This document shows positions 5,359-52,106 of a DNA stretch of 64,000 nt, piece by piece. The notes beneath the pieces are model-generated. The model had not been told where the DNA came from, searched no databases, and saw nothing but the letters and a program-made list of their open reading frames with translations. Origin of the DNA: a bacterium (lineage in GTDB: Bacteria > Patescibacteriota > Dojkabacteria > SC72). The stretch lies in contig JAJTYH010000002.1 in NCBI GenBank assembly GCA_021463465.1, positions 201,799-265,798 of the forward strand, given 5' to 3'. Within the stretch, counting starts at the first letter, position 1. Every line of letters starts with the position of its first letter. The position numbers were made by a program, and so were the translations under genes.

Positions 5359-5401
5359 TATAGGTTGTTACTTAAAGCTAAATAAGGTATAATTCTTCAT
5401 T

Positions 5402-6958: not shown

Positions 6959-7069
6959 AACTTTCCCTACGTTTGAAATTTCTGTTGAAATAAAGAGTTA
7001 ATCCTTCTACTAAATACACCTTGCGTATATTCATTAGAAGAATCAGTGAAGATGCTGAAGAGTAGTGTT

Positions 7070-7096
7070 GCCCTGCGGCATTCGCAGCCGCAGGGC
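7070..7096. terminator. GC-rich perfect hairpin (10-bp stem, 7-nt loop) between convergent genes
   Basis: gccctgcggc-attcgca-gccgcagggc. Weak T-run (cacttttac) follows on the + strand. Sits at the left edge of the GC-rich segment. Confidence 0.45.
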
Positions 7097-7106
7097 CAGA
7101 ACACTT

Positions 7107-7739
7107 TTACTCAACCGAACAACCATCCAATTCTTCGCGGACCTCAGCCCATGCATCGACAAACGCCGTCACAAAAGCCTGAGGATCGCCTCCGTCAAAC
7201 TGAATAATTGTTGACATGGGGACATCCCAAGATGACATGAGACTCGTGTAGTGTGGAACGTAGGTTCCGACACACATGTAATGAGTCACCGACCTGGATT
7301 GAACCCATTGATGGTAGTCACGCATCGCAATAAATATCGATCTGTTTTCGGTGACACCGTCAACTGCACCCAGCTTCAGTTCCTCTTCGGCGAATTCACC
7401 CCACGAGACAACGAGTTGTCCGTTTCCCCACGGGATATACGCCTGGAACCAGGATCCGTGATCAATGGAATCAACGCCGTACGTGTCTGAGATGAAATCT
7501 TCAGTCCACGTATAAAATCTCGGCGTCGATGTATCTCCAACGACCGCATGTCCGTCTTCGTCAGTCCACTCAAGAACTTCTCCTGCCTTTTCGTGGCTGA
7601 CAACGTCAACCGCTGAACCTGACTCAGGCCCGGCGGCTTGGATTGAACCGTTAGGACGGAACGCCGTGAATACCAGAGCAATCGCTCCCACGAGTCCAAG
7701 TCCGAACAGAAATCCGAGTAACGTACTGTTTCGCTTCAT
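7107..7739 (-). CDS. Secreted/membrane-anchored hypothetical protein encoded by an anomalously GC-rich segment
   Basis: N-terminal hydrophobic signal/anchor (LLGFLFGLGLVGAIALVFTAF). Trp- and Asp-rich, no recognisable family. Local GC ~50% vs ~38% in flanks. Confidence 0.55.
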   Translation of the reverse strand: MKRNSTLLGFLFGLGLVGAIALVFTAFRPNGSIQAAGPESGSAVDVVSHEKAGEVLEWTDEDGHAVVGDTSTPRFYTWTEDFISDTYGVDSIDHGSWFQAYIPWGNGQLVVSWGEFAEEELKLGAVDGVTENRSIFIAMRDYHQWVQSRSVTHYMCVGTYVPHYTSLMSSWDVPMSTIIQFDGGDPQAFVTAFVDAWAEVREELDGCSVE

Positions 7740-7794
7740 ATGATCATCTCCTTGTTTGTAAGCGAATCTAACTTGATTTGTTTTTACCTATTTA

Positions 7795-7834
7795 CACCCA
7801 CTCAACTCTCTATAATTAAAGAGTTCAGTGGGTG
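7795..7834. promoter_or_regulatory. 15-bp inverted repeat with a TATAAT-like loop in a divergent intergenic region
   Basis: cacccactcaactct-ctataattaa-agagttcagtgggtg (one mismatch), between the start of the GC-rich gene (7739) and the next + strand gene. Confidence 0.4.
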
Positions 7835-8043
7835 AAACAGTTTTTCAAACCAATAAGTTCGCAAGGTGTAAAAATCATCTTCACTGATATATACCCGATA
7901 GTAGTAGATTAAAATCTTACTACCAAGTATTTTAAAAGATCAATCTAAATAAGAAATTCAGATCTGCACAATTATATAATAGGTGAGAAGGGGAAGTCAA
8001 TACTATAGGTTGTATGGCAGATGACAAATTGATATAATTGACG

Positions 8044-9201
8044 ATGGTTAATAATGCTAACACACAAGAAATTAATAGATTAAATGCGTTAAGGGAGCAA
8101 ATTACCTTTCCTATCGGAATGGATTCAGGAGAAATTTTGGATCAAGTACCTCAAGCAGAACAAATTTTAGCAGAGTTAGATGCTGGATTTGTTGAACTAC
8201 CTTCGCTTGATGAAGCCTTAAAGGCAAAACTTGGCGACAATGCGGAAAACCTTTTGAAAGCAGAAGGTTTTAGAGTGTTAGATATCAGAAACAATCAGTG
8301 CACATATCTATCTACCAAGAACCTCCCAAATGGCCGCAAAGAACTAAGGTCGCACTGGAAAAAACTCCTCAAAGAACTCCCAGAGGAAGCCTCTGTTAAG
8401 TCTATTGGTGATATTCTCCTAGTAACTCAGAGCGTTAAAGATGGAGTACTGACAAACAAACTTCATGTACTTGTAGATTTAAGAGAAAATGAATCAAGCA
8501 AAAAGGATGGGATAAGTCTATCAATACTTCAAGAGAAAGAAGACGGACATGTTTGGGATGTTAATAATTTGTACGGAATAAAGAGTAAAGTTTACTTGAA
8601 AAATAACGAACTGGTTTGGTTATTTATCAATCCATTTAAGTACTTTGGACGTATCGCCACAATTGATGGGAAAAATGTAATCCTAAACCGTTTATCACTT
8701 AATCCGGGGAGTCAAAGCTTCATTCCTGACATAGTCAAACATGAAAAGGTGCATATTAAACAGAGCTCAGAAGGAGTCCTTAAAATGGATGATGAGTTAA
8801 AGTTTGTTGCTTTTTCAATCCTTTTTCAAGATTTAGCCTCATTATCCTCACTTGCTGTTTTGATTCAACAAGGCTCACCTTGGCTATTTATGGCAAGTCT
8901 CACTGCAGCTTTAGCACTGTATATTCGTTCTAGACAAAAAGGAACTCCTTTGAACAAAGGACTGAGTAAACTACTAGCTGTTGAGGCAGAAGCATACTTT
9001 TCTTCTATTGCACACGAAAGAATTCTTAGAGATAAAGGGTATGTTGCAAGTAAACCTATACTACAACCCAAAGAGTATGCTAAACAACTTTCTTTATACC
9101 AACCTCTCACTTGGCTTTTGATCCAGAAAATTCATGAGCTTTTTACTAGGCGGAAGATAACAGCTGCTCCCTTACCGGCTACAGGATATTCTTTGAGTTA
9201 A
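8044..9201 (+). CDS. Hypothetical protein with an HExxH motif and C-terminal hydrophobic helices
   Basis: The ORF track starts on TTG at 8038; the first ATG is at 8044. VKHEKVHIKQ (HExxH) is followed by two predicted TM helices. No confident family. Confidence 0.4.
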   Translation: MVNNANTQEINRLNALREQITFPIGMDSGEILDQVPQAEQILAELDAGFVELPSLDEALKAKLGDNAENLLKAEGFRVLDIRNNQCTYLSTKNLPNGRKELRSHWKKLLKELPEEASVKSIGDILLVTQSVKDGVLTNKLHVLVDLRENESSKKDGISLSILQEKEDGHVWDVNNLYGIKSKVYLKNNELVWLFINPFKYFGRIATIDGKNVILNRLSLNPGSQSFIPDIVKHEKVHIKQSSEGVLKMDDELKFVAFSILFQDLASLSSLAVLIQQGSPWLFMASLTAALALYIRSRQKGTPLNKGLSKLLAVEAEAYFSSIAHERILRDKGYVASKPILQPKEYAKQLSLYQPLTWLLIQKIHELFTRRKITAAPLPATGYSLS

Positions 9202-9266
9202 AAGTCATTGACTCCCTACTAAAGAAATGCTTAAGTATATGAGTAAATAAATTTTGTCTCTGCCCA

Positions 9267-9614
9267 ATGGATATAGCGCAAATCAACGCTTTACTCGATT
9301 CACTAGAGGATTTGTTTAATAAAGCCGATGAAACTATTGTAAAACCTGAGAATAAGGTTTTTGTATTGGCCGGAATCTCAAACCTGAGAGATAATCCAAC
9401 TTCTGAAGAATTAGAAGGTTTCTTAGATGTGATAAAAGCTTACGCAACGCTCCCAAGCGAACAGCTTAACGCTATATCTGCCCAAGAATCACATGCAACT
9501 CAGCCACAAGTACCTTCACAAACAGCTGACGACAGTTTAGCGCAGGATCAAGCCAGACTTAAAGAATTACTTGAAAAGTTAAATAAATTAAATCAAAGCG
9601 CAGTTCAGGAGTAG
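9267..9614 (+). CDS. Small acidic hypothetical protein
   Basis: 115 aa, D/E/Q-rich, coiled-coil-like C-terminus. Immediately upstream of the giant ORF. Confidence 0.4.
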   Translation: MDIAQINALLDSLEDLFNKADETIVKPENKVFVLAGISNLRDNPTSEELEGFLDVIKAYATLPSEQLNAISAQESHATQPQVPSQTADDSLAQDQARLKELLEKLNKLNQSAVQE

Positions 9615-9691
9615 GCGAGAATACTCTTGTGCAATTTAGCAGAAAAACTTATATTAGTTGGTAATAACGAGTAAATTAAAAGTATTTTGTT

Positions 9692-10153
9692 ATGTTAAAA
9701 ATGCCAGATGTGTCAGTATTATCCCAAGATATTTTCCAGCTTTTAGGTATGGAAGCATTGGATGAAGTTGAGAAAGAGAAGTTTATGAACGATTTTTTGA
9801 ATTCAGTTTCAAAACAATTTTTCATTTCAAAGATTTTACCTTTCCTCAGTAATGAAGAAAAAGATAACTTATCTGACAAATACGAGAATTTGGATCAAAC
9901 AACTCTTCCAACTTTATTTGGTGAACTTTCAGAAAAGATTCCTAATATCGCTGATCTATATGTTGAATCCTTGAGAGAAGTCAAAGCGAAGCTTGTTACA
10001 GACACATACATCAACAAATCAGATATGCTTGAAGACTTAATTGCAAAAGAGAGTGACTCAGGTAAGGCTTCAGATTTGCGTGAGCAGTATGATTTATGTC
10101 AAAAAAACCTATCTTACGCACAAAACGGAAGATTCGATTTGATAACTAATTAA
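9692..10153 (+). CDS. Small acidic hypothetical protein
   Basis: 153 aa, acidic, helical. Stop lies 18 bp before the giant ORF's ATG. Confidence 0.4.
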   Translation: MLKMPDVSVLSQDIFQLLGMEALDEVEKEKFMNDFLNSVSKQFFISKILPFLSNEEKDNLSDKYENLDQTTLPTLFGELSEKIPNIADLYVESLREVKAKLVTDTYINKSDMLEDLIAKESDSGKASDLREQYDLCQKNLSYAQNGRFDLITN

Positions 10154-10171
10154 TATTTTTTATTGGAAAAC

Positions 10172-13100
10172 ATGTTAGCAGCACCTGGACGAGGAGAACT
10201 ACCAAGCTTTGAAAATCTAAATATTTCTCCAGAGAGCGCTGAAGAGTTAGGGAGAGATTTACGTAAAACTTTAGAGGCACTTGTAACTGGTTTCACTGGT
10301 GACTCTGGAGCAGCAAAAAAACTTCTCGAGAGTATGCTTGACCCGCAAAAAGAGCAAGCAGAGGGAAAAGTTCCAGAACGAACTAATGCTACACCTCTTT
10401 TGTCTGAGCAAAAGGGTGTGAAAAAGGTAGATAATGGACTTGAAATTGAAATTACTTCACCTGCGGTCAAGGAAGCTTTCATTGGCCCAAATGGGCGATC
10501 ATTGACAGAAGATATGTTCCAAGTCATCGCAGGAAGAGAAACGCAGGTAAGTGCCGCAGGTAAACCAGGAAATCTAAACTCGGGTCTTAGTGAAGTTAAA
10601 TCTGTCACTTTAGGCGGTGCCAATGTGAAGACAGGCTTTGATAGGTTAGAGCTTTCTAAAGGTGGTGATAAAGGATCTCCAAATGGTAACGAAGTTCTTA
10701 CTTTTGTAAAATTAGATCCAGAGGGGAAACCTGACCCAAAGAAGTCTGTCTCGATAAGAATTGAGAGAACTCAAAACGATACTAGTGGCATCCCTGATTC
10801 CAAAGTAATACTTTCCTTGGGCCTCCAAGAGACAAGTAACGCTATTACAGATAGTATTGGTAATATTCCAACGCGTTTATCACAAGTTGAATATTTACTG
10901 AAATTCAAACCGGATTTATCACTACAAGAAAAGGATGATTTGTCGGCCGAAGCCGCTTTGTTACGCGAACAGACAGTAACGGGTTTAAATGCAGAATCAA
11001 GACAAGCAAACCAGGCCTTGCTTTTTAAGGATTTGGCCTCAATTATTGCAATCGCTCGAGAAAGAGGACATTCAGTAACGTCTAGAGCTTCAATGGCTGA
11101 TTCAAATGAATCTGTTAGCTCAAGACAGTTTCAGGCTTTAGAAGTTTTCAATAGAATTATTGAGACACCTGGCTCTTTGATTAATCGATCAAAAAAAGCG
11201 GAGAAAAGAAGTGGAGACGTATCTGAAGATCAGAAGCTTTCCGACCTGAAGAGTTTTATAAATAAAGTTAGAGCCGATAGTAATGGAGAAGTTCCTGACC
11301 AAACGCCCAGGCAGGAAGTTCCAACTCCGTTAGGCGGTGAGTTGCAAACTAGCAATACTAAAAAGGAAGCTCCAAAGTCTATTGATGAGCTGAAGAAAGA
11401 TTTTGAAGGTGAACTCTCAGCAATTAAGGACTTGAGAAAGCGAAAAGAAGACTTAGAAGCAGAAATAAAAGCACTTAGTTCTGCTGATGCAGGAACCCTC
11501 TCCGTTGAAGAGAAAAAGAAACTTGAGTCTCTACAGAAGGACCTAGACGAGACAAAGCGCGGGTTAGAAATCTTAAAATCGCTTGGTGACATACAACTAT
11601 TTGACAGGAAAAAAAGTCTCAGAGATAAACTCAAAAACAGATTTCAGGATGAAATTGATTCTAGTACTGTCCTTACCCCTGAACAAATATCAAAACTCTC
11701 AGTTTCAGACTTACTTAGAATTCTTACCTTAAATGCCCAATACGCTAGCAAGAAAGATTCTACACCTGAAACAGCTGAAAAGGACAAACAGAATCTAGAC
11801 AAAATCAACGCTCTTATTGGTTTAGTCAATAGCTTCTCTGAAGCAAACCCTAATGCAGTAAAAGAGAGTAAAGGAAAAGATAAAAAGAAAGCAATCGACT
11901 TACTCACTGAGTGGTTAACTGCAAGAGAAACATCCCTAAGTACTGAAATTGACAAGCTCAACACAGCAGGAGCAACACTTGAAACAACTAACAAAGAGAG
12001 GGAAGAGAAGCTTGCAGCTTTGAAGAAGGAACTCGAGAAATTAGATGTTGATTTTGCAGCTACGCAATTAAAGGCAGCAAGTAGCTTAAGATCTCTTGGC
12101 GATCAAATCCCAACTGATGAATGGATCAAGTTAAGCAGCGCGCTGCATGAAGCTTCATTTGGTGATTTGCCAGAGAACCCCGAAGACACAAAAACAAAGA
12201 CTGAAGCCGCCGCCAATGCTTCTATCGCTTCAAATTGCCTTAGACATATTGATTTAGAGCTTGAGCAACGAATTGAGCCTGAAACTTCTAAGGTTAAGAA
12301 GTTCTTTAAACGAGCAGCTGAGGTACTTACATCTGTATTCGGTGGTATAGCCGCTCGAACAGCAGTTAAAGCTATAATAACTGGAACCCTAGGTTTAGCA
12401 CTTGGCGGTCCAGCAGGCTTATTGCTTGGTGGTGTTGCAGGGGCCTTGGCTGGAGGTGCTTCGAGTGCAATATTTAGTACTTGGATGCATTACAAGGTTT
12501 TCCACAACGACAAACTGCATGCGTTATATGCAGAGAATGCGAATCCTGGCAAATATGATTTCTTCAGATCTAGAATATTTGATAAGGCTAATGAGACTTA
12601 TGGTGTTAAAGCTCGAATCCAAAACATTGCAACCGTATACAATCAATTACTTTCGGGTCAACTAAAAGCCGATCAGTTAACACCTGATTTAGCTAAGACA
12701 GTACTGTCGGTTGTCAAAGACGCCAAGATGCTTAAAAACACCACCAATTTCATTGGTGTAAATAATCTAGGACTCGATGCGAATCTTTTCAAAAATGCTG
12801 CGGGTGAAACGGTTTTACCAGAAGATGCTTTACGAGATTTTGCTTTGAAATTTGATAATTTTGTCAACAACTCTATAAATGCAGGAAAATTAAACACTGA
12901 CGAAGTTTCAAAAGCACTTAGTGAAGCTGACAGTGAATCTAAGACAATGGTTAATGCAATGATAGCTTCAGCTTCTTGGACCAAATTCTTTAAAGGTGCT
13001 CTAATCGGAGGTGCTTCAGGCTTAATCGCACAAGGAATAGGAAATGCCCTCGAAGGAAAGGGCTTCTTAGGAACAGAAACTGGTGGGGTGACAAACTCAG

Positions 13101-15400
13101 CTGTAGGTTCAGTCACAGAATCACAAATGTCTGATGCAGATGTTTTGAAATTTAATGAAGAAGCTATGAAACGATTGGCTCCATACGGACAACAACAAGT
13201 AGCTCTCTTGCATCAAAACTACAGTAATGTTCCCGAAGCAGACTTACAAAAGATGTTTACCCAATTTGATGTAAATGGTAATGGAATACTTGAAGGCACT
13301 GAAGCAAATGCTCTAGTAGATTCACTTAATCAGTCAGGCTCAACTGGAGGTGTACCTACGTTAGTTGGTGCATGGGACGCACCTTATGATGGAAATATTT
13401 CAAAAGATGTACCACCTGAGTGGGTAGATACTTGGACCAAAGCAATCTACAATGTGGGTCGAGGACATGATTTCCATGGAGCTCAGTTTAGTATGCAGGG
13501 TGCTCCTGGAGGCGACTATTACGCTCTAGGACGGGCTTTAGATTACATGTCAAAGCATGTGCCAGCAGAGAGTATGAATACTCCCGAGGCTGGAATTTCG
13601 GTCTCCCATCTTTACGGCCACTTATTACTTGGAGGCCAACCAACCGATGCTCAATTAGCTGAATTCTTGACCAGGGTTGATGCCAAATATGAAGGTACAG
13701 ATTATGATATAAGCAAGATATTTACAGGTTCAGGTGAAGCAGTAACATCTTCTACAACCAATTCATCTGCATTGATTGCAGGAATGAACCAAATCACAAC
13801 GGCGGCCCAAAATGATGTAATGACTCTTTGGTCATCAATGGCTGAGAGCCCAACTATAACTGAGACAGTAAGCAACTCAGTGGCTAATTTTGTTGTTGAT
13901 ACCACAAAAGGTATAAATGAACTTGGCACTTCAGGTGCATTGGCAGGAATGGGTGTTTCTATGTGGCTAGCAAATATGTACACACCTGAGAATAGAGAGT
14001 ATGCCAAGGTGAAAGAGGCTGGCAAAGAAGGAGATAAGTCCGGTACACCTCCAGCAAATCAACCGGGAAATAGTTCAACTTCTGCAGGCTCAACAACACA
14101 AAAGGCAAATAACACACCTGGTAGTAACTCTGCAGACCAAACAGTTGAGACAGCAAACCGAAACAGTGGTCTTACAGATATCTCAGCCGCAAGTGCAAAA
14201 CAAGGAAGTGAATTGAAACCTTTTGGTAAAATTGAGTCTGCAGGAGTAGGCCTTTCTGCTGATAGTGAGAATACTAATCCAAATGTGGTAAATATTAATG
14301 CAGCAAACGGAAGATTTGTGGCATCAACCCCAGTATGGGTTAAGTCGCAAACAGGAAATGTCTCACAATTTGCCTACAGGCATCCAAGATTGGCTGAACT
14401 CTACAAAGAAGTTCTTTATATCGGCAATTTCATCAAACAATACGCCAAAACAACTGTTGGAATGAATAATGATCCTTTTGAGGCCCAAGTACTTGCAGAT
14501 ATTACAAAGTCAGTAGCTGCAAATGATAAGTATGCAGTAAGGAGACACGATGGAGGGGCCGTAAGCGTTGCGAGTTCACAGGTATATAACCTTGATCCCT
14601 ACAGAGCAAGAAAAAATGAACTCACGGCTGGACAAAACTTAAGAGAATTAAATGAAAGTGTTCGCCAGCCATTGGCCAAATTCGTCAAGAAAATGCTTGA
14701 GGTTGAATTTGGTGCAGGTGGATTAGGTCAGCAACACTTAGGTGATATTGATAGGGGAGTTCTTGATCTTTACATGAAGGATGGCGGCGAGAAATATATT
14801 AATAATGAGCAAGTACACGCATTCTTAGCTCTGCTTATGGTGTTGAATGATCCTGAAAATATGGAACCTAAATCCAAGTTCCTAAATCAAAAAGGTACAC
14901 AAGAATTCAATGGAATTGTAAATGTAATGATCTCTAGAGAGAGCGCATGGATGTCAATGTTATCACCAAAACTAAACGGCCAAAATTACCTAGGCTCAGC
15001 ATTCTTAGTGTCTGACGGAATTATTAGATCTGCACTTGAAATGAGCGGATATAATGTAAAGCCAGACCAAAGAGAAGCCCGACAGTACTTTACAAACGTG
15101 GATCAAATTGCGAGATCAGTAGCGTTGGTTAAAGGAGGCTCACCGTATAGTAATGCTCTGCAGTTAGTAAATCTTGCTAATCAAAACGGGGTAGAGTACT
15201 TCGCTCTAATGCGCGAAGCCACAGCAAAGGCACGAGCAGAAAAGAAAGGAAAGAAGAAAAAGCAACAGCAACAGCTAAATGATGCCGTAAGTGCAGTCCC
15301 AACAGTTACACCACAACCTGGCGAGGCCTTGCAAGATGAACCAGCACGTGAAGCAGTAGTAGTTGGAACGAACGAGCCAGCAGGTACAGATGAGATCTAA
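10172..15400 (+). CDS. Giant (1742-aa) multidomain protein with a coiled-coil region, a glycine-zipper membrane segment and a canonical EF-hand
   Basis: The track ORF begins on TTG at 10163; the first ATG is at 10172. Long heptad/KE-rich stretch (~aa 380-640). GxxxG-rich hydrophobic segment TGTLGLALGGPAGLLLGGVAGALAGGASSAIF. EF-hand loop DVNGNGILEGTE flanked by helices. Lys/Gln-rich C-terminal tail. Confidence 0.7.
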   Translation: MLAAPGRGELPSFENLNISPESAEELGRDLRKTLEALVTGFTGDSGAAKKLLESMLDPQKEQAEGKVPERTNATPLLSEQKGVKKVDNGLEIEITSPAVKEAFIGPNGRSLTEDMFQVIAGRETQVSAAGKPGNLNSGLSEVKSVTLGGANVKTGFDRLELSKGGDKGSPNGNEVLTFVKLDPEGKPDPKKSVSIRIERTQNDTSGIPDSKVILSLGLQETSNAITDSIGNIPTRLSQVEYLLKFKPDLSLQEKDDLSAEAALLREQTVTGLNAESRQANQALLFKDLASIIAIARERGHSVTSRASMADSNESVSSRQFQALEVFNRIIETPGSLINRSKKAEKRSGDVSEDQKLSDLKSFINKVRADSNGEVPDQTPRQEVPTPLGGELQTSNTKKEAPKSIDELKKDFEGELSAIKDLRKRKEDLEAEIKALSSADAGTLSVEEKKKLESLQKDLDETKRGLEILKSLGDIQLFDRKKSLRDKLKNRFQDEIDSSTVLTPEQISKLSVSDLLRILTLNAQYASKKDSTPETAEKDKQNLDKINALIGLVNSFSEANPNAVKESKGKDKKKAIDLLTEWLTARETSLSTEIDKLNTAGATLETTNKEREEKLAALKKELEKLDVDFAATQLKAASSLRSLGDQIPTDEWIKLSSALHEASFGDLPENPEDTKTKTEAAANASIASNCLRHIDLELEQRIEPETSKVKKFFKRAAEVLTSVFGGIAARTAVKAIITGTLGLALGGPAGLLLGGVAGALAGGASSAIFSTWMHYKVFHNDKLHALYAENANPGKYDFFRSRIFDKANETYGVKARIQNIATVYNQLLSGQLKADQLTPDLAKTVLSVVKDAKMLKNTTNFIGVNNLGLDANLFKNAAGETVLPEDALRDFALKFDNFVNNSINAGKLNTDEVSKALSEADSESKTMVNAMIASASWTKFFKGALIGGASGLIAQGIGNALEGKGFLGTETGGVTNSAVGSVTESQMSDADVLKFNEEAMKRLAPYGQQQVALLHQNYSNVPEADLQKMFTQFDVNGNGILEGTEANALVDSLNQSGSTGGVPTLVGAWDAPYDGNISKDVPPEWVDTWTKAIYNVGRGHDFHGAQFSMQGAPGGDYYALGRALDYMSKHVPAESMNTPEAGISVSHLYGHLLLGGQPTDAQLAEFLTRVDAKYEGTDYDISKIFTGSGEAVTSSTTNSSALIAGMNQITTAAQNDVMTLWSSMAESPTITETVSNSVANFVVDTTKGINELGTSGALAGMGVSMWLANMYTPENREYAKVKEAGKEGDKSGTPPANQPGNSSTSAGSTTQKANNTPGSNSADQTVETANRNSGLTDISAASAKQGSELKPFGKIESAGVGLSADSENTNPNVVNINAANGRFVASTPVWVKSQTGNVSQFAYRHPRLAELYKEVLYIGNFIKQYAKTTVGMNNDPFEAQVLADITKSVAANDKYAVRRHDGGAVSVASSQVYNLDPYRARKNELTAGQNLRELNESVRQPLAKFVKKMLEVEFGAGGLGQQHLGDIDRGVLDLYMKDGGEKYINNEQVHAFLALLMVLNDPENMEPKSKFLNQKGTQEFNGIVNVMISRESAWMSMLSPKLNGQNYLGSAFLVSDGIIRSALEMSGYNVKPDQREARQYFTNVDQIARSVALVKGGSPYSNALQLVNLANQNGVEYFALMREATAKARAEKKGKKKKQQQQLNDAVSAVPTVTPQPGEALQDEPAREAVVVGTNEPAGTDEI

Positions 15401-15431
15401 CTTTGGCTTTTTAAAAGTTTTAGGATCGAAA

Positions 15432-15457
15432 GGGGGCTAGCACATAGCTCCCTTTTT
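15432..15457 (+). terminator. Rho-independent terminator after the giant ORF
   Basis: gggggcta-gcaca-tagctccc (8-bp stem with one G-U pair) followed by TTTTT. Confidence 0.7.
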
Positions 15458-15461
15458 GATA

Positions 15462-15491
15462 TTGACAAAGTCTCCAGACCTATAGTATAAT
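15462..15491 (+). promoter_or_regulatory. Consensus sigma70-type promoter (TTGACA-18 bp-TATAAT)
   Basis: ttgaca at 15462-15467 and tataat at 15486-15491, with an 18-bp spacer. Drives a ~170-nt leader ahead of the GC-rich ORF at 15666. Confidence 0.6.
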
Positions 15492-15565
15492 ACACTCGTA
15501 ATATCTTAGAATATTACAATCTGCTCTTTTAAAATGCAGTACGATAATAAGATTTCTGTGAGAGC

Positions 15566-15618
15566 CAACTAACCAATATTGTTATTAATCACCTATTGAT
15601 ACCACTATTGGTTAGTTG
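15566..15618 (+). promoter_or_regulatory. 13-bp perfect inverted repeat in the 5' leader (operator or RNA stem)
   Basis: caactaaccaata ...27 nt... tattggttagttg, between the promoter and the SD (aaaggagg, 15651-15658). Confidence 0.45.
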
Positions 15619-15665
15619 TAATATCCAAAATCTTCAAGTGCCAAACACCACAAAGGAGGTCGTCA

Positions 15666-16084
15666 TGGCAGGTTTCTTTAGTTCGGTTTGGAATACGCTC
15701 ACGGGACGCGGTAAGGAGTCGCAATCAATGCAATTCATGCGTGAAACCGGAGCGGGTCAAGGGGACATTCGGGTGGCACGAGCAGCTCTCATTGACGCGG
15801 TCAACGCGGCGTGCATTGAGCTTGATATCGTTCTCAAACCCGGTGGAACCCAGGTAATCGAGAAGGCAATCCTTGAAGCTGTCGACCCAGGGTCGATCCA
15901 AAATCTTCAGCTTCTCCAGAGGATGCGCTCCATGGGAGTCTTAAACACTGGCATGATGATGCAATCGCCAACTCCAGCGATGGACCCAACAATGATTGCG
16001 CAAATCGTCAACCAGGTGATGGACGCTCGTGAAGCCGCCAAGCTCACCCAAACAGACCGGCCCCAAAAATCAGACGAGGTGTAA
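15666..16084 (+). CDS. Small hypothetical protein in a GC-rich (~55%) self-contained cassette
   Basis: Strong SD AAAGGAGG 7 nt upstream of the ATG at 15666; the track ORF start at 15596 lies inside the leader. Own promoter and terminator. No recognisable domain. Confidence 0.6.
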
Positions 16085-16112
16085 CAACCGAGTCAGCGTA
16101 CTGCATTCCCGT

Positions 16113-16141
16113 GGGGAAGCTCTCTTTTAGAAAGCTTCCCC
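16113..16141 (+). terminator. Rho-independent terminator
   Basis: ggggaagct-ctcttttagaa-agcttcccc, a perfect 9-bp stem, followed by a gttttgtgttt T-rich run. Confidence 0.65.
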
Positions 16142-16198
16142 CGGGTGTACGTTTTGTGTTTACATATATCAATATGTTTAGTATTTTTATATGTAAGT

Positions 16199-17425
16199 AT
16201 GAAATCACCTACTCACGAGAGTACAAACAAAAACCCTCGCCATATTGAGAAAATAGGGTTAAAAGCTGAAGCAACAGAAAGTTCACCAAACATCGAGACG
16301 GGACTAAGACTTTTAGGATCTGGTTTTGAAGGCGATACTTATGAATACAGGGCGAGAGATGGAAGTATTAAAGCCATAAAGGTTTTCAGACCTCGTGGGA
16401 AGGTATGGGATGACAACTATCATCAAGAGTTTGATGCTGCAGACCCAAACGACCCGAGAGAATTATCCAAAACAATATTTCGTGCAGCACATACAGCGAG
16501 ATGGGCAGATCGAATACAACATCCAGCACATCTGATTGAGGAGATTAACAAGCTCGATGACGAACTAATGGCGACAGGATCGAGTGCGTATAATATTCGA
16601 ACTCTACAAGAATCCTTTGCTAGGGTAGGTGATTTGAACACTAATGGCTTTAGAAATTATTTAACCCAAAGAGCATTAGCCCTGGGACAAAGGATTTTTG
16701 TTCCTGAAATAAATATTGACCCAAATTTCAAAGGTGGATTAGGCTCAGCGATTAATCGTTTAGTCGAATGGACAAGTACTAATTATCCTCAATTACAGCT
16801 GCCTAAAAGAATATTTCCCAGATTCATACAATTTGGAAAGTTTCCTGAAGACTATCCAAATCTTAAAGTCGCTGGAAGAGAGTATTTAGTTATGGAGAAA
16901 GTGCACTTGATTCTTGGTGACTATATAGAAAAGACTCAATCCAAAATACTTTCAATGGGCAGTATTTTATCTGATAGCCCTGAAATAGCTCAAGTTCAAC
17001 CCCTCCCAATCTCGATTCAACAGATTGCCGGAACTAGAACGAATCTAGAAATTTTAGCTTCTCTAGGATTAACCTTTGGTGATTTAAAATTGGGTAACAT
17101 AGCCTTTGACGCAGACAACACTCCAATTCTCATTGACCCCACTGCGGTGCTCAAAACTGGAAGTATCCAAGATATTGCTACTATGGACTACCTCCCTCCA
17201 CATGTTCAAGCACAAGTAAGAATGATGCAACCAATCAAGGGAGATCCTCAAAACGATATTTATGCTTTAAATCGAATACTTTCTATTATACAGCAGGAAT
17301 GGATGCAGGCTGTAATGCAAGGACTAAGAAAGAATACGCGTAATATAATGCATGATGAGAGGGTTGGGACAGAAACAGCCTCAACAATGCTTCAAAACTC
17401 AAGAAGAAATCAAAATACATTATAA
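16199..17425 (+). CDS. Protein-kinase-like (PKL) superfamily protein, atypical
   Basis: Track start is GTG at 16145; the first ATG is at 16199. LGSGFEGDTYEY (GxGxxG loop) with AIK lysine 14 aa later. FGDLKLGNIAF resembles the HRDLKxxN/HGDxxxGN catalytic loop; IDP may be the DFG-equivalent. The spacing between the Lys and the catalytic loop is unusually long. Confidence 0.45.
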   Translation: MKSPTHESTNKNPRHIEKIGLKAEATESSPNIETGLRLLGSGFEGDTYEYRARDGSIKAIKVFRPRGKVWDDNYHQEFDAADPNDPRELSKTIFRAAHTARWADRIQHPAHLIEEINKLDDELMATGSSAYNIRTLQESFARVGDLNTNGFRNYLTQRALALGQRIFVPEINIDPNFKGGLGSAINRLVEWTSTNYPQLQLPKRIFPRFIQFGKFPEDYPNLKVAGREYLVMEKVHLILGDYIEKTQSKILSMGSILSDSPEIAQVQPLPISIQQIAGTRTNLEILASLGLTFGDLKLGNIAFDADNTPILIDPTAVLKTGSIQDIATMDYLPPHVQAQVRMMQPIKGDPQNDIYALNRILSIIQQEWMQAVMQGLRKNTRNIMHDERVGTETASTMLQNSRRNQNTL

Positions 17426-17429
17426 AAAG

Positions 17430-19346
17430 ATGAGAAACTTTATCAAACCAACAATCCAAAGTTTATTGGAAAATATCTTCGAGAAATCTCAGCTTAAACA
17501 AATCCGTGAATTTGCTGAAAAAGAGCCTCTACTCAATCTAAAAACTCAAAAAACCGTATTTCCGGGTTCAAAGGAGACAGGAAAAGAAAATGTTGTACTG
17601 CCAGAAGTTGAGGTAACAACAAATCTTCCATTAAGTCATGACAAATTGCTACTAAACTCCACAGGGCAAAATGAGTGGCGAAGAGCTATTGGCTTTAGTC
17701 CATTGAATACACCTCAAACCAGAGAACGCATTGATAAGGGAGCAATGGTTATGGTTGTGAAATCAAAGGATGTCACAGCAATTGGAGTTAACCGACCCTC
17801 CACGCTAACATATCATCTTCCGCAAGATGCAAGTGCTATTTCTATTATGGAAGTTGACGGTGAATCAGTAATTGGTCTCCAGGTGGCAGATGGTACGACA
17901 TTCTTGGAGCTTGGAGATACAGAAATTCAAGCATGTAAGAGGCCGATTACAGGTGGAGATAAAATTACAAATCGCACTTCAAAAGTTCATTGCGATAGTG
18001 ATAGATGGGCGCACTTTGTTGCAAGAACTTCTGCGACAATAGGCTTACAAGGAGCTCAAAAGGGTTCAGGAACAATCAAAGGGATCTCGGAGAGTGACAG
18101 AGATAAGCTCGTGGAAGAAAATGGGGTTGGATCTTCAACCGCGCAATCATTATCAATTAAACGTACTGAAAAAGGTTATCATGCTCAAATAGTTGGGACA
18201 GGGGCAGAAAGAGATTTTGGCCAAATCTTCGTTGGGACTGACAAAAGAGCTGACCAGCTTGCACTTCTACCAAATATGGAAAATATTAGCCCCATGAATT
18301 CTAGCTCAAGGGTGCTTGGACTGGTTGGGAGGGAGCGGCTAATCCAACCAACTTTGGATGCCGATTTCGAAGCGGGCACTGCTTTTATTCTGACCTCTGA
18401 CGGTTTTTCACTAAAAAGTCCTCAAATAGGAGAGCTTTTAATCGATTATGCAAAAAACAAAACATCGGAACAGATTATACAAATTCTTCAAGACGCAAAA
18501 ATGCTTGATCTATTATTTGCGCACCCAGATGGAAAGAGACCCGCAAAAGACGATGGAACTCTTTGGTTAGTACTCCTTAACGACCAGGAAAAAGCTCAGT
18601 CTGAAGTTAATCAAAACTTACTCTTAGATGATTTACTTCATAAGGCCAAAGCTCTGTCAAACCTTTTTCCCAAAGCAGCAGAACAGATAAATAGAAGATT
18701 AGAAGAAATAAGGGCTCTTACTGATGAGATACTTCAATGGGTGGAATCAAGAACAAGTGACAGTGTAAGTGTAAATGATTTAAAAGATATTCAAAAAGCA
18801 ACTGAACAGGCCTTAGCAGCTGAAGCAGAACAAAAGGAACTAGAAAAAGAACTGGAATTAGTAAATGAAAGCAAAGTTCTTTTACAACATCATACCCTTA
18901 GTAATCAATATTACTCTGCGGCAATGCTAGATACAGTCGTATCGTTACGCAATGTTATAGGAACTGGAGAAGTTACGAGTAAAATTCTAGCGGAGTGCAT
19001 AGCTACTATTTCATCCGCCTTAAATGGTAACAAGAATATTAAAATTACCAATCAAAAACTCGTAAAGGTTGTTTTCGACGAGTTACTCGAAAAGAGACTA
19101 GCAATAACTAAAGAAGAGAAGTTTTTTGAAACTTTGACCAAATGGATTCAAGATCCTTCACAAGAAAATACTAAGGCTCTGAAATCGCAAATAAGTATTT
19201 CTCTTCCTCATTTAAATTCACTCACTCGCATAATACATAGCGAAGAAGATCAATTTAAAACTAAAGAGTACTTGTATTACTTAGAATATTCAAAAAAATT
19301 AGTACCTACTTGGAAAAACTTAGTAAATACCAAAATTAACGACTAA
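17430..19346 (+). CDS. PP2C-like phosphatase-domain protein with a C-terminal coiled-coil
   Basis: Track ORF begins at 17352, overlapping the upstream gene; an in-frame ATG at 17430 follows that gene's stop. AFILTSDGFS (LASDG-like motif) and DDGTLWLVLL (DD.TVIVV-like terminal motif). A long helical/KE-rich tail follows. Confidence 0.4.
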   Translation: MRNFIKPTIQSLLENIFEKSQLKQIREFAEKEPLLNLKTQKTVFPGSKETGKENVVLPEVEVTTNLPLSHDKLLLNSTGQNEWRRAIGFSPLNTPQTRERIDKGAMVMVVKSKDVTAIGVNRPSTLTYHLPQDASAISIMEVDGESVIGLQVADGTTFLELGDTEIQACKRPITGGDKITNRTSKVHCDSDRWAHFVARTSATIGLQGAQKGSGTIKGISESDRDKLVEENGVGSSTAQSLSIKRTEKGYHAQIVGTGAERDFGQIFVGTDKRADQLALLPNMENISPMNSSSRVLGLVGRERLIQPTLDADFEAGTAFILTSDGFSLKSPQIGELLIDYAKNKTSEQIIQILQDAKMLDLLFAHPDGKRPAKDDGTLWLVLLNDQEKAQSEVNQNLLLDDLLHKAKALSNLFPKAAEQINRRLEEIRALTDEILQWVESRTSDSVSVNDLKDIQKATEQALAAEAEQKELEKELELVNESKVLLQHHTLSNQYYSAAMLDTVVSLRNVIGTGEVTSKILAECIATISSALNGNKNIKITNQKLVKVVFDELLEKRLAITKEEKFFETLTKWIQDPSQENTKALKSQISISLPHLNSLTRIIHSEEDQFKTKEYLYYLEYSKKLVPTWKNLVNTKIND

Positions 19347-19406
19347 TTTACTTGTCCATACCACAAGAGTATAATCCCTCAATAATTACAAAAAACAATT
19401 AAAGTT

Positions 19407-21011
19407 ATGGCACCAAGACCCATAACTGCCCCACTAGAATTAGTTTCCCAGTTAGAGCAATTCAAAGAACACACACGTAATGGTGAAGATTTAACTGCAG
19501 AAGGTTTGACTACAACAATAAAAGCTTTTTCAAAAGCTATAAAGGTTGGATTTGAGGGTGCATCTGAATTCCTTTCAGAAGAAGCTGAACTTTCAAGAGA
19601 TGAGTTTTTCGCGGAGTATGTGCACTGGAGCGACAATGTTTTAGCCCTGGCCTTAAAACAAAAAGGAATAGACAGAGTTCTGGTTTCCACTCCAACGGGA
19701 ATTCAGGGCGCCGGTAAAGGAACATACGGTGACACTCTTCAAGTACTTGCACAGGAACTTGTCGAAGAAATGGCGTCTGGACAACCTAAAAAATACAAAC
19801 AACTGGTTACTCAACCTGACGCAATCACAGAGAAATGTGTTGCCCGAGCGAGATCACAAGAAGTAAAAACGGGTACAGGAGGAATTTTTAACCATAAAAA
19901 CACAAGATCTGAGATAACTACAGACGAAGAACGCGAATATTTCGATCTCTTCAATGATATGAAAAATGCAATGGGTGCTGCAAAGGGCGTTTTTGTAGAG
20001 AACAATATTGTAGCCATTGCATTAAACCTTTATATGGCATTAAAAGTAATGCAGAATGAGGAAGGTATAAGTTCATTCAATATCGACCTCTATCCAAGAT
20101 CTCAGCGTCAGATTGAACTTTTAGAACAGACAACTGGAACACTCCAAGACAACGGGATAGTCCTTGAACATAGCACTATTGATTTTAAACTCCTCAATGA
20201 AGAACAGGTCCAACAGTTACTAAGATACAAAAACAGCGCTCTTGCAATTCTCCCAAAGGTACAAGAAGGTTTTACAACTGTAATTAAAAGGGTCGAAGAA
20301 GTATTTAGAAGCCACTCAGATGATTACACCTTTGATGAACTACGAAAAGATCTGACCGGTATTATAATGAGTGCTTCAGAAGGCGAAACTGATGCAATGA
20401 GAGCAGCTGAGTTGATGCTAAATGAGTGTTTAAGTGCAGCAAATAGAACAGAAAAACGTGGCAAAGAGTCCAAACGACCAGACGATCGTCCAATACCACT
20501 CCTAAAACGATTAAAAGATTACTTTGCCAAGTCATTTGCCATACCATTCCTATTCGAAAACCCTATGATGTTTGCCACAGACTACAAACCCGAAGAGGTT
20601 GCAAGAAAAGTCTTTTGTAAGTATTTCAGTATTGAACATTCTGCACCAGAACTTCAAAATGGCGGTAAGTACTATGATCTTTACAGAAGATACCAATACT
20701 TAGCCGCATGCAAAGTGTATGGAGAGTTTAAAGGTGACTTAGAGCTCAGACAAATAAAAAGGGAAAAGCCTGATTCAACTGAGTTGATTTACTGGGGAGA
20801 AGCTGGGAATGTAATATTTTATTCGTTCATTCAAAAACCTGGTGGTAACTCAGTTATGTACACAATAGGACATAAAGGAACTACTTTTACAGAAGATATC
20901 CCAGGATTAGCTAATACACTTAAGCTAGAAATTCCACAAACCCAAACAATTGCTGAGTTTATTGAGAATAATCCTCCACTTTGGTATCAACTAGAAGGTA
21001 TCTTCATTTAA
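19407..21011 (+). CDS. P-loop kinase-like protein (GxxGxGKGT Walker A, adenylate/nucleotide-kinase-like)
   Basis: STPTGIQGAGKGTYGDTL P-loop; the rest is unrecognised. Convergent 8-bp overlap with the integrase. Confidence 0.45.
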   Translation: MAPRPITAPLELVSQLEQFKEHTRNGEDLTAEGLTTTIKAFSKAIKVGFEGASEFLSEEAELSRDEFFAEYVHWSDNVLALALKQKGIDRVLVSTPTGIQGAGKGTYGDTLQVLAQELVEEMASGQPKKYKQLVTQPDAITEKCVARARSQEVKTGTGGIFNHKNTRSEITTDEEREYFDLFNDMKNAMGAAKGVFVENNIVAIALNLYMALKVMQNEEGISSFNIDLYPRSQRQIELLEQTTGTLQDNGIVLEHSTIDFKLLNEEQVQQLLRYKNSALAILPKVQEGFTTVIKRVEEVFRSHSDDYTFDELRKDLTGIIMSASEGETDAMRAAELMLNECLSAANRTEKRGKESKRPDDRPIPLLKRLKDYFAKSFAIPFLFENPMMFATDYKPEEVARKVFCKYFSIEHSAPELQNGGKYYDLYRRYQYLAACKVYGEFKGDLELRQIKREKPDSTELIYWGEAGNVIFYSFIQKPGGNSVMYTIGHKGTTFTEDIPGLANTLKLEIPQTQTIAEFIENNPPLWYQLEGIFI

Positions 21012-22281
21012 GCGGATGCTTATCTTTGTGAGTATCTGAAGCAAATTTGTCAGATGCATGCACATACCTTGTTGTTGTATTAAGGCTTTCATGACCTAAC
21101 AGGACTTGAATTGCAGCTGGATTAGCACCATTTTCAGCCAAATATGTAGCAAAGCCATGCCTCAGACTGTGAGCTGAAGTGGGAACTAAAATACCCAGTC
21201 TACGCCTATACTGCGCGATTTTCTCTTGAAAGTAGTTTGAAGATATTCGCATATTTTCTTTCTTTTTTCCTCTTCCAGAGAATGGAATAAACAGAGCAGG
21301 GGAGTCAAACTTCGTAAGGAAGTTATTTTTCCTAAAGTCTTCTACTAGAGCTATAAAACGGTAGGAGTGATTTCCATCAGAAACAGCGGCCATCAGCTCA
21401 GAGCCTTTCAATGTTTCACGCTCCGTGTCATGAATATGCTTTAAGCGCACTTCTAAATACTTATCTAACCAACTCATGGCCCTTGGTGTCATGTATACGA
21501 AACGTTGCTTTTTCCCTTTACCTAAAATAAAAAGCTTACCATCCAAATTTACTTGATCCAAGTTAAGGCCAATCAGTTCTGAAATACGCATACCTGTTGA
21601 AAAAAGTAGCTCTAGCATTGCACGATTGCGCACACTTACTTCATAATCCTTTTCAAATTCGCTCGGTGCTTCAATTAAGCTAATCAATTCATCCAGCTCA
21701 GCAACCTGAGACTTTTTCTTCTCAGCCTTAATTAGTTTAATTGCATCCGGCGCAATTGGAATTTCTAAATCTCTATCAATTCTAAATTTTAAATACGAAC
21801 GAATCGCAGATAACATTCGATTCACACTTCGAGCATCCAAACCCGTAGTCGACCTCGCGGAAGCGTTTTGGGGTTTGTTTGACATTCCCAGACTGCCAAA
21901 GACTTTTTTATATACATTATCGAGAAAACCAGGCTGATCCATAGGTGTTGTTAGAGCACCTGATACCTCTTCATCGCTTTTAGGGCCATCGTAGCCCGTC
22001 GCTGGACTTTGTACCGTACTATCAAGCTTTCTAAGACTTTCAGCTCTGAATTTATCCAAATCTTTCAAATGTTCGCCACTTCGAAGATAACCTTTATAAA
22101 TAGTAATCTCTTCTTTGGAGAGTTTAAGGAATTGGACATCTTTGAAATGTAAAAAGACTGCAAAGATAGATAGGTCCCTGGCATAGTTGAAGACTGTCTG
22201 CATACTGTAGTTATTATTCTGAAGATCTAAAAGGAATTTGTCCTGTTCTGGTAGCTTAGGGATTGTTATGTTTTTGGACAT
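21004..22281 (-). CDS. Tyrosine site-specific recombinase / phage-type integrase
   Basis: ARSVNRMLSAIRSYL (Arg I box) and HSLRHGFATYLAENGANPAAIQVLLGHESLNTTTRYVH (box II, HxxR...Y catalytic tyrosine). N-terminal SAM-like core-binding region. Confidence 0.9.
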   Translation of the reverse strand: MSKNITIPKLPEQDKFLLDLQNNNYSMQTVFNYARDLSIFAVFLHFKDVQFLKLSKEEITIYKGYLRSGEHLKDLDKFRAESLRKLDSTVQSPATGYDGPKSDEEVSGALTTPMDQPGFLDNVYKKVFGSLGMSNKPQNASARSTTGLDARSVNRMLSAIRSYLKFRIDRDLEIPIAPDAIKLIKAEKKKSQVAELDELISLIEAPSEFEKDYEVSVRNRAMLELLFSTGMRISELIGLNLDQVNLDGKLFILGKGKKQRFVYMTPRAMSWLDKYLEVRLKHIHDTERETLKGSELMAAVSDGNHSYRFIALVEDFRKNNFLTKFDSPALFIPFSGRGKKKENMRISSNYFQEKIAQYRRRLGILVPTSAHSLRHGFATYLAENGANPAAIQVLLGHESLNTTTRYVHASDKFASDTHKDKHPLK

Positions 22282-22717
22282 AGAGTAGGGGTCTAAAATT
22301 ATATTTTTACTAGGCTAGAAATACAGTGAATAAACCGATAACTTAGATATTCATAGCACGCAAAAGAGAAAAGTTTAATCAAAAACGCTAAAGGTAAGAA
22401 TGTTAGAAATCTGTTGTAAGAAAGCATATTTTATGCAGTACTATATATTTCCCGTACTTAAACCGCATATAAGGGCGATTATACTCGGTAATATTAACTC
22501 GATTTATTTGCCCAGTCAAGCGGGAGAGGCTACTTCACTCTTACTAATCACACATAAAAATCCATGAAAGTATTTTTCGATTATTGGTTACCATTTATAA
22601 CCCATTTAGCATTTGGAAGTAAGCAGAAACTTATCCACACCGCTAAGAAACTATAGGCCGTACAGGGGGTGACGTACTACAGGTCCTTTGTTTCACTACC
22701 CCTACTCCCCACTGAAC

Positions 22718-52091: not shown

Positions 52092-52106
52092 TGTGGTACA
52101 AATTAT

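Follow-up and report, generated by a model that had tools for sequence, protein, structure and literature searches.

The window analyzed here is the whole 64,000-nucleotide (nt) stretch taken from contig JAJTYH010000002.1 (positions 201,799 to 265,798), and its subject is a small GC-rich unit termed cassette 2 (Table 1). Cassette 2 is located between a 1742-amino-acid (aa) gene, which stops at 15400, and a kinase-like gene, which starts at 16199. It contains a single open reading frame (ORF) encoding a 139-aa product, P0001, preceded by a promoter and a leader of ~167 nt and followed by a GC-rich hairpin. A preliminary description of 15432–16141 had named a terminator, a perfect promoter, an inverted repeat, a consensus Shine-Dalgarno (SD) sequence, the ORF and a final hairpin, and all of these elements were found where it had placed them. 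A second GC-rich unit, cassette 1, is found in the same window, and an ortholog of cassette 1 is found on a 3.2-kb contig (L012) of another organism. The preliminary description considered cassette 2 to be a recently inserted and autonomously expressed unit, a reading that as a whole is partly supported by the analysis below.

Table 1. Features of cassette 2, of its sister unit and of the L012 ortholog; positions are those of the window unless a contig is named.
Feature	Position	Strand	Remarks
Predicted intrinsic terminator of the 1742-aa gene	15425..15460	+	hairpin ~15425–15455, then U5
Sigma-70-type promoter TTGACA-18-TATAAT	15462..15491	+	12/12 consensus match
Predicted 5′-terminal stem-loop GUAAUAU/AUAUUAC	15498..15517	+	begins at predicted +1
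AU-rich leader motif UCUUUUAAAAU...UAAGAUUU	15525..15555	+	occurs in cassette 1 leader too
5′ arm AAUGCAGUACG of predicted 11-bp 5′–3′ duplex	15533..15543	+	
Long leader hairpin, ~22 bp	15566..15618	+	contains 13-bp perfect inverted repeat
Shine-Dalgarno sequence AAAGGAGG	15651..15658	+	7 nt ahead of ATG 15665
139-aa ORF (P0001)	15665..16084	+	ATG 15665, TAA 16082–16084
3′ arm CGUACUGCAUU of predicted 5′–3′ duplex	16097..16107	+	13 nt past stop codon
GC-rich 3′ hairpin, probable terminator	16108..16160	+	core 16113–16141 plus CCCG/CGGG flanks, GUACGU, UUUUGUGUUU tail
Cassette 1	6995..8011	−	TTGACT-18-TATAAT, ~236-nt structured leader, AAGGAG, ORF 7107–7739, GC hairpin, terminal hairpin
L012 ortholog unit	L012 880–1900		

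The boundary with the upstream gene is marked by the hairpin and U5 tract that had been described as its terminator. The 65-nt region around it (15398–15462) folds at −22.5 kcal/mol (z −4.2), and this structure would shield the unit from read-through out of the 1742-aa gene. The 64-kb window was scanned on both strands for promoters. As previously described, the promoter of cassette 2 matches the consensus perfectly, and with TTGACA at 15462 it is the sole perfect TTGACA-18-TATAAT site on either strand; under a first-order Markov null, at least one such site arises in 4.5% of simulations. Three sites in the window reach at least 11 of 12 matches, two of which lie upstream of the two GC-rich ORFs, both with an 18-nt spacer. 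The third-best sigma-70 match, TTGATA-16-TATAAT (11/12, 17446–17419 on the minus strand), is directed antisense into the kinase-like gene at its 3′ end, where that gene meets the next one, and may be a chance match or an antisense promoter. Promoter spacing places the predicted transcription start of cassette 2 at G15498, and the cassette 1 and L012 units likewise have a hairpin at their predicted +1. The octamer CCTATAGT, with the palindromic core CTATAG, occurs four times in the window (5357–5364, 8002–8009, 15479–15486 and 22650–22657; 1.7 expected). All four copies are intergenic and two overlap the cassette promoters. The octamer may be an operator or a promoter-associated motif; four copies were reached in 11 of 100 shuffles, which is not significant on its own.

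The 13-bp perfect inverted repeat reported for the leader is real and is the core of a longer repeat with 24-nt arms (15566–15589 and 15595–15618, 88% complementary), which as RNA folds at −21.4 kcal/mol (z −6.2). Just past this hairpin lies the first copy of a perfect 14-nt direct repeat, ATCCAAAATCTTCA (15623–15636), the second copy of which is inside the ORF (15896–15909); AAGAUUU (15549–15555), a conserved motif of the leader, is complementary to each of them. At the other end of the unit, the 3′ hairpin is built on the core GGGGAAGCU/AGCUUCCCC, lengthened by CCCG/CGGG and GCGUAC/GUACGU, and the 81-nt region containing it folds at −33.3 kcal/mol (z −5.0). The terminator with a perfect 9-bp stem is thus accurate in that the 9-bp core exists, but the U-tract UUUUGUGUUU adjoins the extended stem only and not the core. 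The hairpin abuts a promoter-like site of the next gene (16159–16187). Taken as a whole, cassette 2 is self-contained and probably autonomously expressed and monocistronic, as had been proposed, with composition and signals distinct from those of its neighbors.

The ORF, the composition of which had been described as foreign, has a GC content of 53.6% and GC fractions of 0.61, 0.42 and 0.58 at first, second and third codon positions (GC1, GC2 and GC3). The 19 neighboring genes have a GC3 of 0.27–0.39 and a GC content of 33–41%. In a composition scan extended to 84 kb by adding 10 kb beyond each end of the window, 400-nt windows above 48% GC were confined to the P0001 ORF and to 7107–7739, and the added flanks contained no further GC-rich unit. 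The host, an uncultured bacterium, has an AT-rich genome, and the promoter and leader of cassette 2 are likewise AT-rich (33% GC).

Because P0001 has no relatives and the unit shows no polymorphism, evidence for coding must be intrinsic. With a codon table trained solely on cassette 1 and its ortholog, frame +1 scored +8.8 bits and the other five frames −28 to −84; 2000 shuffles under the same table gave −64 ± 15 bits with a maximum of −17, placing the real frame 4.9 standard deviations higher. GC is distributed unevenly over the codon positions (chi-square p=0.003), and 66% of first positions are purines. Alternatively, the GC-rich stretch could be a structured RNA gene that contains a 139-codon frame by accident. 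A GC-rich island in an AT-rich genome frequently turns out to be an RNA gene, and this alternative is consistent with the lack of a protein homolog, with the poor AlphaFold model described below and with the open run itself, since 139 open codons arise in 3.3% of shuffles of the GC-rich segment. On the other hand, the ORF body folds no better than shuffled sequence (z −1.2 sense, −1.0 antisense), which led us to reject the structured-RNA reading of the ORF. No Rfam family reached its gathering score in the window, and nothing meaningful was found at E≤5 in 15380–16220 or at E≤1 in 6980–8020. The strong SD at ideal spacing, the elevation of the codon score in the annotated frame only and the existence of a protein-level ortholog with conserved frame for the structurally identical cassette 1 also argue against an accidental frame. 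We therefore give this alternative very little credence, and the P0001 ORF is very probably protein-coding.

The preliminary description had proposed a homology search of the 139-aa protein; the searches were run, and no homolog was found in any database searched. In 5.8 billion protein clusters (word-indexed HMMER), P0001 matched nothing but itself, as was also the case in an exhaustive phmmer comparison with 1.84 billion representatives. It had no match in the Pfam, PHROG, NCBIfam and PADLOC libraries, in IMG/VR, or by blastn in INPHARED (50,697 phage records) and the PLSDB plasmids. With about 15 billion sequences covered, P0001 is a true orphan. A single-sequence AlphaFold model is all-helical but unreliable (predicted local distance difference test score, pLDDT, of 44), and neither this model nor that of the cassette 1 protein (2-sequence alignment, pLDDT 44) was fit for a fold search. 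The sole match in the PDB, the designed helical-repeat protein 6xr1 (E=6e-6, with no stretch significant individually), was rejected as compositional. No signal peptide or transmembrane segment was seen in P0001 when the sequence was read by eye. P0001 is probably a cytoplasmic, all-helical and lineage-restricted protein.

Cassette 1 resembles cassette 2 in design and codon usage rather than in its product. The two proteins are unrelated by profile comparison. The cassette 1 ORF encodes 210 aa with a GC3 of 0.51; its leader contains a long hairpin in addition to the 5′ stem-loop, and on its 3′ side a GC-rich hairpin is followed by an AT-rich terminal hairpin. A comparison of codon usage, suggested earlier as a means of detecting a common signature, did find one: the codon usage of each cassette fits the other better than does that of any of 28 native genes. 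Under native codon usage, cassette 2 has the worst likelihood in the window. The promoter and leader regions share TATTGAC..CCTAT..TATAAT followed, at a similar distance, by UCUUUUAAAAU...UAAGAUUU. A scan of 185,579 species genomes for the leader motif returned 3 matches in unrelated organisms, taken as chance, and a scan of JGI metagenomes returned 23 matches, also judged to be chance; with nhmmer only two copies were recovered, both in the window.

The cassette 1 protein has one homolog, P0005 on L012, with 41–46% identity. The VanY and GH26 of L012 are 67% and 43% identical to those of the window and are found in the same neighborhood. Synonymous sites are saturated between the two, the fraction of identical codons being 0.32–0.44 as compared with 0.40–0.44 at random, for cassette 1 and native genes alike. 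The L012 ortholog nevertheless has a GC3 of 0.51, as opposed to 0.28–0.36 in its native neighbors, and is flanked by AT-rich sequence. Its unit comprises an AT-rich promoter and leader, AAGGAG, a GC hairpin of differing sequence and a conserved AT-rich hairpin. Conservation of the non-coding sequence flanking cassette 1 and its L012 counterpart (80% across 76 nt, 88% across 57 nt) exceeds that of the protein. Read by eye, the N-terminus of the L012 protein resembles a lipoprotein signal (…LSAC|G) and that of the window copy a signal anchor.

Because the L012 ortholog retains a GC3 of 0.51 despite synonymous saturation, GC-richness in these units is a maintained trait and not a clock of recent insertion. 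The GC-rich make-up of cassette 2 is thus probably a maintained property rather than proof of recent import, and anomalous GC cannot be used to date an insertion when it is a maintained trait of the cassette class. For this reason, and given that no flanking direct repeats or mobile-element genes were found, the description of cassette 2 as recently inserted is not upheld. A recent, moron-like import from a GC-richer phage or plasmid donor, placed between the giant and kinase-like genes, would account for the GC3 of 0.58 as compared with about 0.30 in native genes, for the poor native-codon likelihood, for the possession of a promoter and terminator by which phage morons are defined (PMC3594210), for the location within a block of genes lacking homologs and for the tyrosine recombinase gene 5 kb away. 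However, no donor was identified, as no homolog exists among the 15 billion proteins, IMG/VR, INPHARED and PLSDB, and the searched collections contained no related genome with the flanking genes. In a PHROG scan of the ORF and its 9 surrounding ORFs, matches were limited to the Xer-like recombinase and a single family of unknown function, with no structural or replication genes. The host-like AT-richness of the promoter and leader and the persistence of the sister composition past synonymous saturation also argue against such an import, which we consider unlikely.

The SD of cassette 2 is exceptional within its own genome. Across 49 gene starts, the duplex with the anti-SD sequence has a median energy of −1.0 kcal/mol, and just 5 starts reach −8 or lower, while the value for cassette 2 is −12.3 kcal/mol. 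Three of the five strongest SDs belong to starts that, read from their positions, are operon-internal or overlapping; the other two are those of the cassettes. AAGGAG combined with ATG at a gene start is found only at the two cassettes. Many other starts have a TATAAT-like box 5–10 nt before the ATG (for example at 5402, 8044, 38356 and 48636), which suggests that the genome is largely leaderless and rarely uses an SD. Given rare SD use and leaderless-type starts, the combination of a 167-nt leader with a strong SD is exceptional here.

The leaders of all three units are highly structured, with z-scores of −4.7 in cassette 2, −7.6 in cassette 1 and −5.9 in the L012 unit, and in leaders and 3′ regions the sense strand folds more stably than the antisense in nearly every comparison. 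In the case of the long leader hairpin of cassette 2, the values are −21.4 kcal/mol for sense and −18.6 kcal/mol for antisense. Its stem holds a G-U pair, which is a mismatch on the other strand, and the two sister leaders carry equivalent long stems of unrelated sequence. On these grounds the inverted repeat, for which a regulator site and an RNA stem had both been envisaged, is better read as an RNA stem, and the bias toward sense-strand folding favors a function at the RNA level.

A further feature common to the three units is complementarity between the 5′ and 3′ untranslated regions (UTRs). Since RNAduplex on whole UTRs gave uninformative long duplexes, an exact-complement test and partition functions of whole transcripts were used. 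In cassette 2 the 11-nt arm AAUGCAGUACG is perfectly complementary to CGUACUGCAUU (dinucleotide-shuffle p=0.010), a complement equaled by 4 of 542 genomic chunks. Cassette 1 pairs AUCAGUGAAGAUG with CAUCUUCACUGAU over 13 nt (7888–7876 and 7054–7042; p=0.001), a length reached by no genomic chunk. The L012 unit pairs CAGUGAAGAUGGU with ACCAUCUUCACUG, also over 13 nt (p<0.001), in a paired stretch that changes on both arms have shifted relative to cassette 1. Because the arm sequences of cassettes 1 and 2 differ, it is the complementarity and not the sequence that is the common feature. In folds of the whole predicted transcripts (668–980 nt; 668 nt for cassette 2), the duplexes are present in the minimum-free-energy structures, with mean pair probabilities of 0.97 in cassette 2, 0.91 in cassette 1 and 0.99 in L012.

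In the predicted message of cassette 2, the 5′ hairpin (15498–15517) is followed by an AU-rich single strand, the long-range duplex and, directly 3′ of the latter, the GC hairpin. The duplex closes off the remainder of the leader together with the ORF. Its 3′ arm is in competition with the terminator's outer GCGUAC/GUACGU extension, and it is only with that extension formed that the U-tract lies beside a stem. End-pairing might conceivably be tied in this way to termination or to read-through into the gene at 16199.

At the DNA level, perfect inverted repeats of 11–13 bp surround the ORF in all three units, and they could instead be recombination sites at which a tyrosine recombinase, perhaps the Xer-like one (21004–22281), flips the ORF relative to the fixed promoter, giving phase-variable expression. 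The Xer-like recombinase gene lies 5 kb from cassette 2 with three large genes between them and encodes 425 aa with an N-terminal extension. Such inversion would also suit the fast-evolving cargo (41–46% identity for cassette 1) and the lipoprotein-like signal of the L012 protein, which are typical of phase-variable surface genes. Nevertheless, the orientation is the same in 8 of 8 independent assemblies, the repeats of cassettes 1 and 2 lack the common consensus expected of sites for one recombinase, and the positions of the arms relative to the 3′ hairpins differ between the cassettes. The best models for the recombinase are the chromosome-dimer resolvases XerC/XerD (173 bits, below their cut-offs), and pairing at the RNA level explains the same data together with the sense-strand bias of the leaders. 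An invertible segment is therefore highly improbable.

The locus is not an assembly artifact, a possibility raised in the preliminary description, since a metagenome-assembled genome at NCBI (GCA_020853275.1) and 8 independent Logan metagenome assemblies, built from separate sequencing runs, carry it at 99.5–100% identity. Base-by-base comparison of three assemblies showed no difference within 15432–16141, and the remaining five assemblies have two differences at most anywhere. Samples that carry the genome include those of runs SRR17318674/76, SRR30163053/54, SRR35280563 and ERR10655372/75. Farther downstream, the otherwise near-identical strains L002 and L005 differ from the window in a cluster at 19706–22604. 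In the case of L002, 72 of 77 differences fall in the 3′ part of a 534-aa gene, in the gene for the Xer-like recombinase and in the 436 nt of intergenic sequence upstream of the latter, and just 5 (4 substitutions and one 1-nt indel) fall in 7282–19700; this variation looks like a recombination tract. A 1-base indel at 19291, where three other assemblies have an extra A, lies near the 3′ end of a 636-aa gene (17430–19346). It would alter the last ~17 codons and could represent a sequencing or assembly difference or a length variation.

Considering these lines of evidence together, we favor with moderate confidence the interpretation that cassette 2 is a genuine monocistronic gene for a lineage-specific protein, whose mRNA pairs its ends for control of stability and translation. 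The architecture would give a high and controllable output. Protection from 5′- and 3′-dependent ribonucleases would come from the end structures together with a ribosome initiating at the strong SD. The 5′–3′ duplex would tune how accessible the AU-rich leader site is, and might also affect how efficiently the terminator works. The G/C-rich codons could, more speculatively, be part of the same adaptation by offering fewer AU-rich cleavage sites. Cassettes 1 and 2 would then form a small class with the same design and the same bias toward G/C-ending codons, kept over evolutionary time. Each element by itself is known; their combination, the conserved GC3 and the threefold 5′–3′ complementarity are unexpected. 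We infer from sequence the start and end of transcription, the pairing of the RNA in vivo and the stabilizing or regulatory role; an effect of 5′–3′ pairing on stability or translation in vivo is suggested by analogy with characterized messages.

Several observations weigh against this interpretation. The start, termination and abundance of the transcript are predictions. With no homolog and no variation within the unit, evolutionary support is absent for both the translation of cassette 2 and its RNA pairs, and the 11-nt complement was found post hoc, with a p of ~0.01 for the unit alone. As DNA, the complement is an inverted repeat flanking the ORF and possibly has another meaning. A hairpin predicted to occlude the SD and AUG is no better than chance (z −0.6). 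The resemblance between the leaders of cassettes 1 and 2 is weak (blastn E=0.34; a Smith-Waterman score equaled or exceeded in 2.7% of shuffles and in 1.7% of genomic windows), and a hidden Markov model built from cassette 1 and L012 fails to recover the cassette 2 leader. After these controls, clear homology of the two leaders was downgraded to suggestive. The class comprises two members in 84 kb plus one ortholog, and pattern scans of public genomes and metagenomes gave only chance-like matches.

A bolder version of the favored interpretation is that the units represent an undescribed class of genes, encoding fast-evolving, lineage-specific proteins on SD-dependent “closed-loop” mRNAs with actively maintained GC codons, in an AT-rich, largely leaderless host that may be a member of the candidate phyla radiation (CPR). 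The GC codons would be kept against mutational bias, for example to resist AU-directed ribonucleases or as part of a separate translation regime. In the case of cassette 2, end-pairing may also compete with the outer stem of the terminator, thereby tuning read-through into the downstream kinase-like operon. We advance this version only tentatively and think it rather doubtful.

The gene content of the window suggests, by inference and not as a test, a resemblance to the CPR. The window encodes GyrA, a YebC-RuvC-RuvA-RuvB cluster, LytR_C and type-IV-pilus ATPases. Also present are an AMP-phosphorylase-like gene adjoining an IF-2B-family (ribose-1,5-bisphosphate-isomerase-like) gene (50580–53051), a VirD4/TrwB-like coupling ATPase (27329–29893) and a beta-CASP/RMMBL ribonuclease gene (53048–54475). 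No significant Pfam domain was found in seven consecutive genes of native composition between 8044 and 21011 (385, 115, 153, 1742, 408, 636 and 534 aa). The GC-rich cassettes are situated inside or bordering this block, with transcription directed away from its four-gene core (8044–15400). The 408-aa kinase-like protein matched only itself in 5.8 billion clusters and has weak matches to APH and fructosamine kinase around “GDLKLGN,” a motif read by eye.

It had also been suggested that the product of cassette 2 could be, for example, an immunity or regulatory protein for effector-like neighbors, and the immunity reading is unsupported. In the form of an immunity or antidote gene of the polymorphic-toxin style, the proposal is consistent with the placement of the 139-aa ORF after the 1742-aa (possibly secreted) protein and before the kinase-like protein, and with its strong promoter, as some immunity genes have a strong promoter of their own. 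However, searches of Pfam, NCBIfam, PHROG and PADLOC found no toxin domain in the 1742-aa protein, and P0001 has no match to a defense or immunity family. The 265-nt gap containing a terminator (z −4.2), a separate promoter and the 167-nt leader is unlike typical toxin–immunity coupling. Strains do not swap the C-terminus together with the small ORF, there being few differences at most across 8 assemblies and the small protein being identical in all, and the identically built cassette 1 is not beside such a protein. An immunity function is accordingly very unlikely.

Cassette 2 may be compared with several characterized systems. Phage morons are insertions in phage or prophage genomes that form independent transcription units, each equipped with a promoter and a terminator of its own and deviating in GC content from surrounding genes (PMC3594210). 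Cassette 2 likewise has its own predicted promoter, a probable terminator and a GC content unlike that of its neighbors; no phage context was found for it, however, and the composition of its sister is maintained over long divergence. Integron cassettes are also small single-ORF units, and cassette 2 shares with them an imperfect-palindrome 3′ end and a tyrosine recombinase in the vicinity. However, integron cassettes are promoterless, end in attC and are arrayed next to intI, attI and Pc, whereas cassette 2 has a consensus promoter and a 167-nt leader and is not part of an array. No GTTRRRY-type core sites were seen around the 3′ hairpin when the sequence was read by eye, and no integron integrase was found beside cassette 2, the recombinase reaching 69 bits under the integron-integrase model, the cut-off of which is 265.

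Closer parallels are found among messages with regulatory ends. The stabilizing elements of the E. coli ompA leader (5′-terminal stem-loop) and of B. thuringiensis cryIIIA (STAB-SD) consist of a 5′-flush hairpin and a strong SD that bar 5′-end-dependent decay, and cassette 2 likewise combines a predicted hairpin flush with the 5′ end and a strong SD. The ompA and cryIIIA elements are experimentally defined and involve neither 3′ UTR pairing nor anomalous ORF composition. In Staphylococcus aureus icaR, the 3′ UTR pairs with the SD region, which blocks initiation and makes a substrate for RNase III (Ruiz de los Mozos et al. 2013, PMC3868564). In contrast, the 5′ arm in cassette 2 is ~110–135 nt upstream of the SD, and occlusion of the SD is unconvincing, as noted above. 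The nearest parallel with experimental backing is the Bacillus subtilis hbs mRNA, the 5′ UTR of which is highly structured. A ribosome initiating at its strong SD blocks RNase J1, and its 5′ and 3′ UTRs interact over 14 bp; this interaction overlaps a leader site of RNase Y and modulates it (Braun, Durand and Condon 2017, PMC5737220). Cassette 2 similarly combines, in a small monocistronic message, a structured 5′ UTR and a strong SD with a predicted long-range UTR duplex (11–13 bp in the three units), and its duplex overlaps the end of the UCUUUUAAAAU motif much as that of hbs partly overlaps an AU-rich cleavage site. A contiguous UTR complement of at least ~10 nt beyond chance, of the kind found in hbs and icaR, is present in all three units. 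Cassette 2 differs from hbs in encoding an orphan rather than HBsu, in having a compositionally anomalous ORF, which hbs is not known to have, and in that its pairing is a prediction; the only ribonuclease identified here is the one beta-CASP/RMMBL gene in the window.

Functional 5′–3′ UTR pairing in bacterial mRNAs has been studied experimentally in only a handful of cases, and three units in which complementarity is kept while the sequence differs would allow it to be studied by comparison. Composition is routinely used to call recent horizontal transfer, and the sister locus, anomalous past synonymous saturation, is a clean counter-example; the persistence of the anomaly implies selection on synonymous sites in a small-genome bacterium. 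The few genes with an SD and a long leader, set in a genome that mostly does not use the SD, are candidates for specially regulated and possibly host-interaction proteins.

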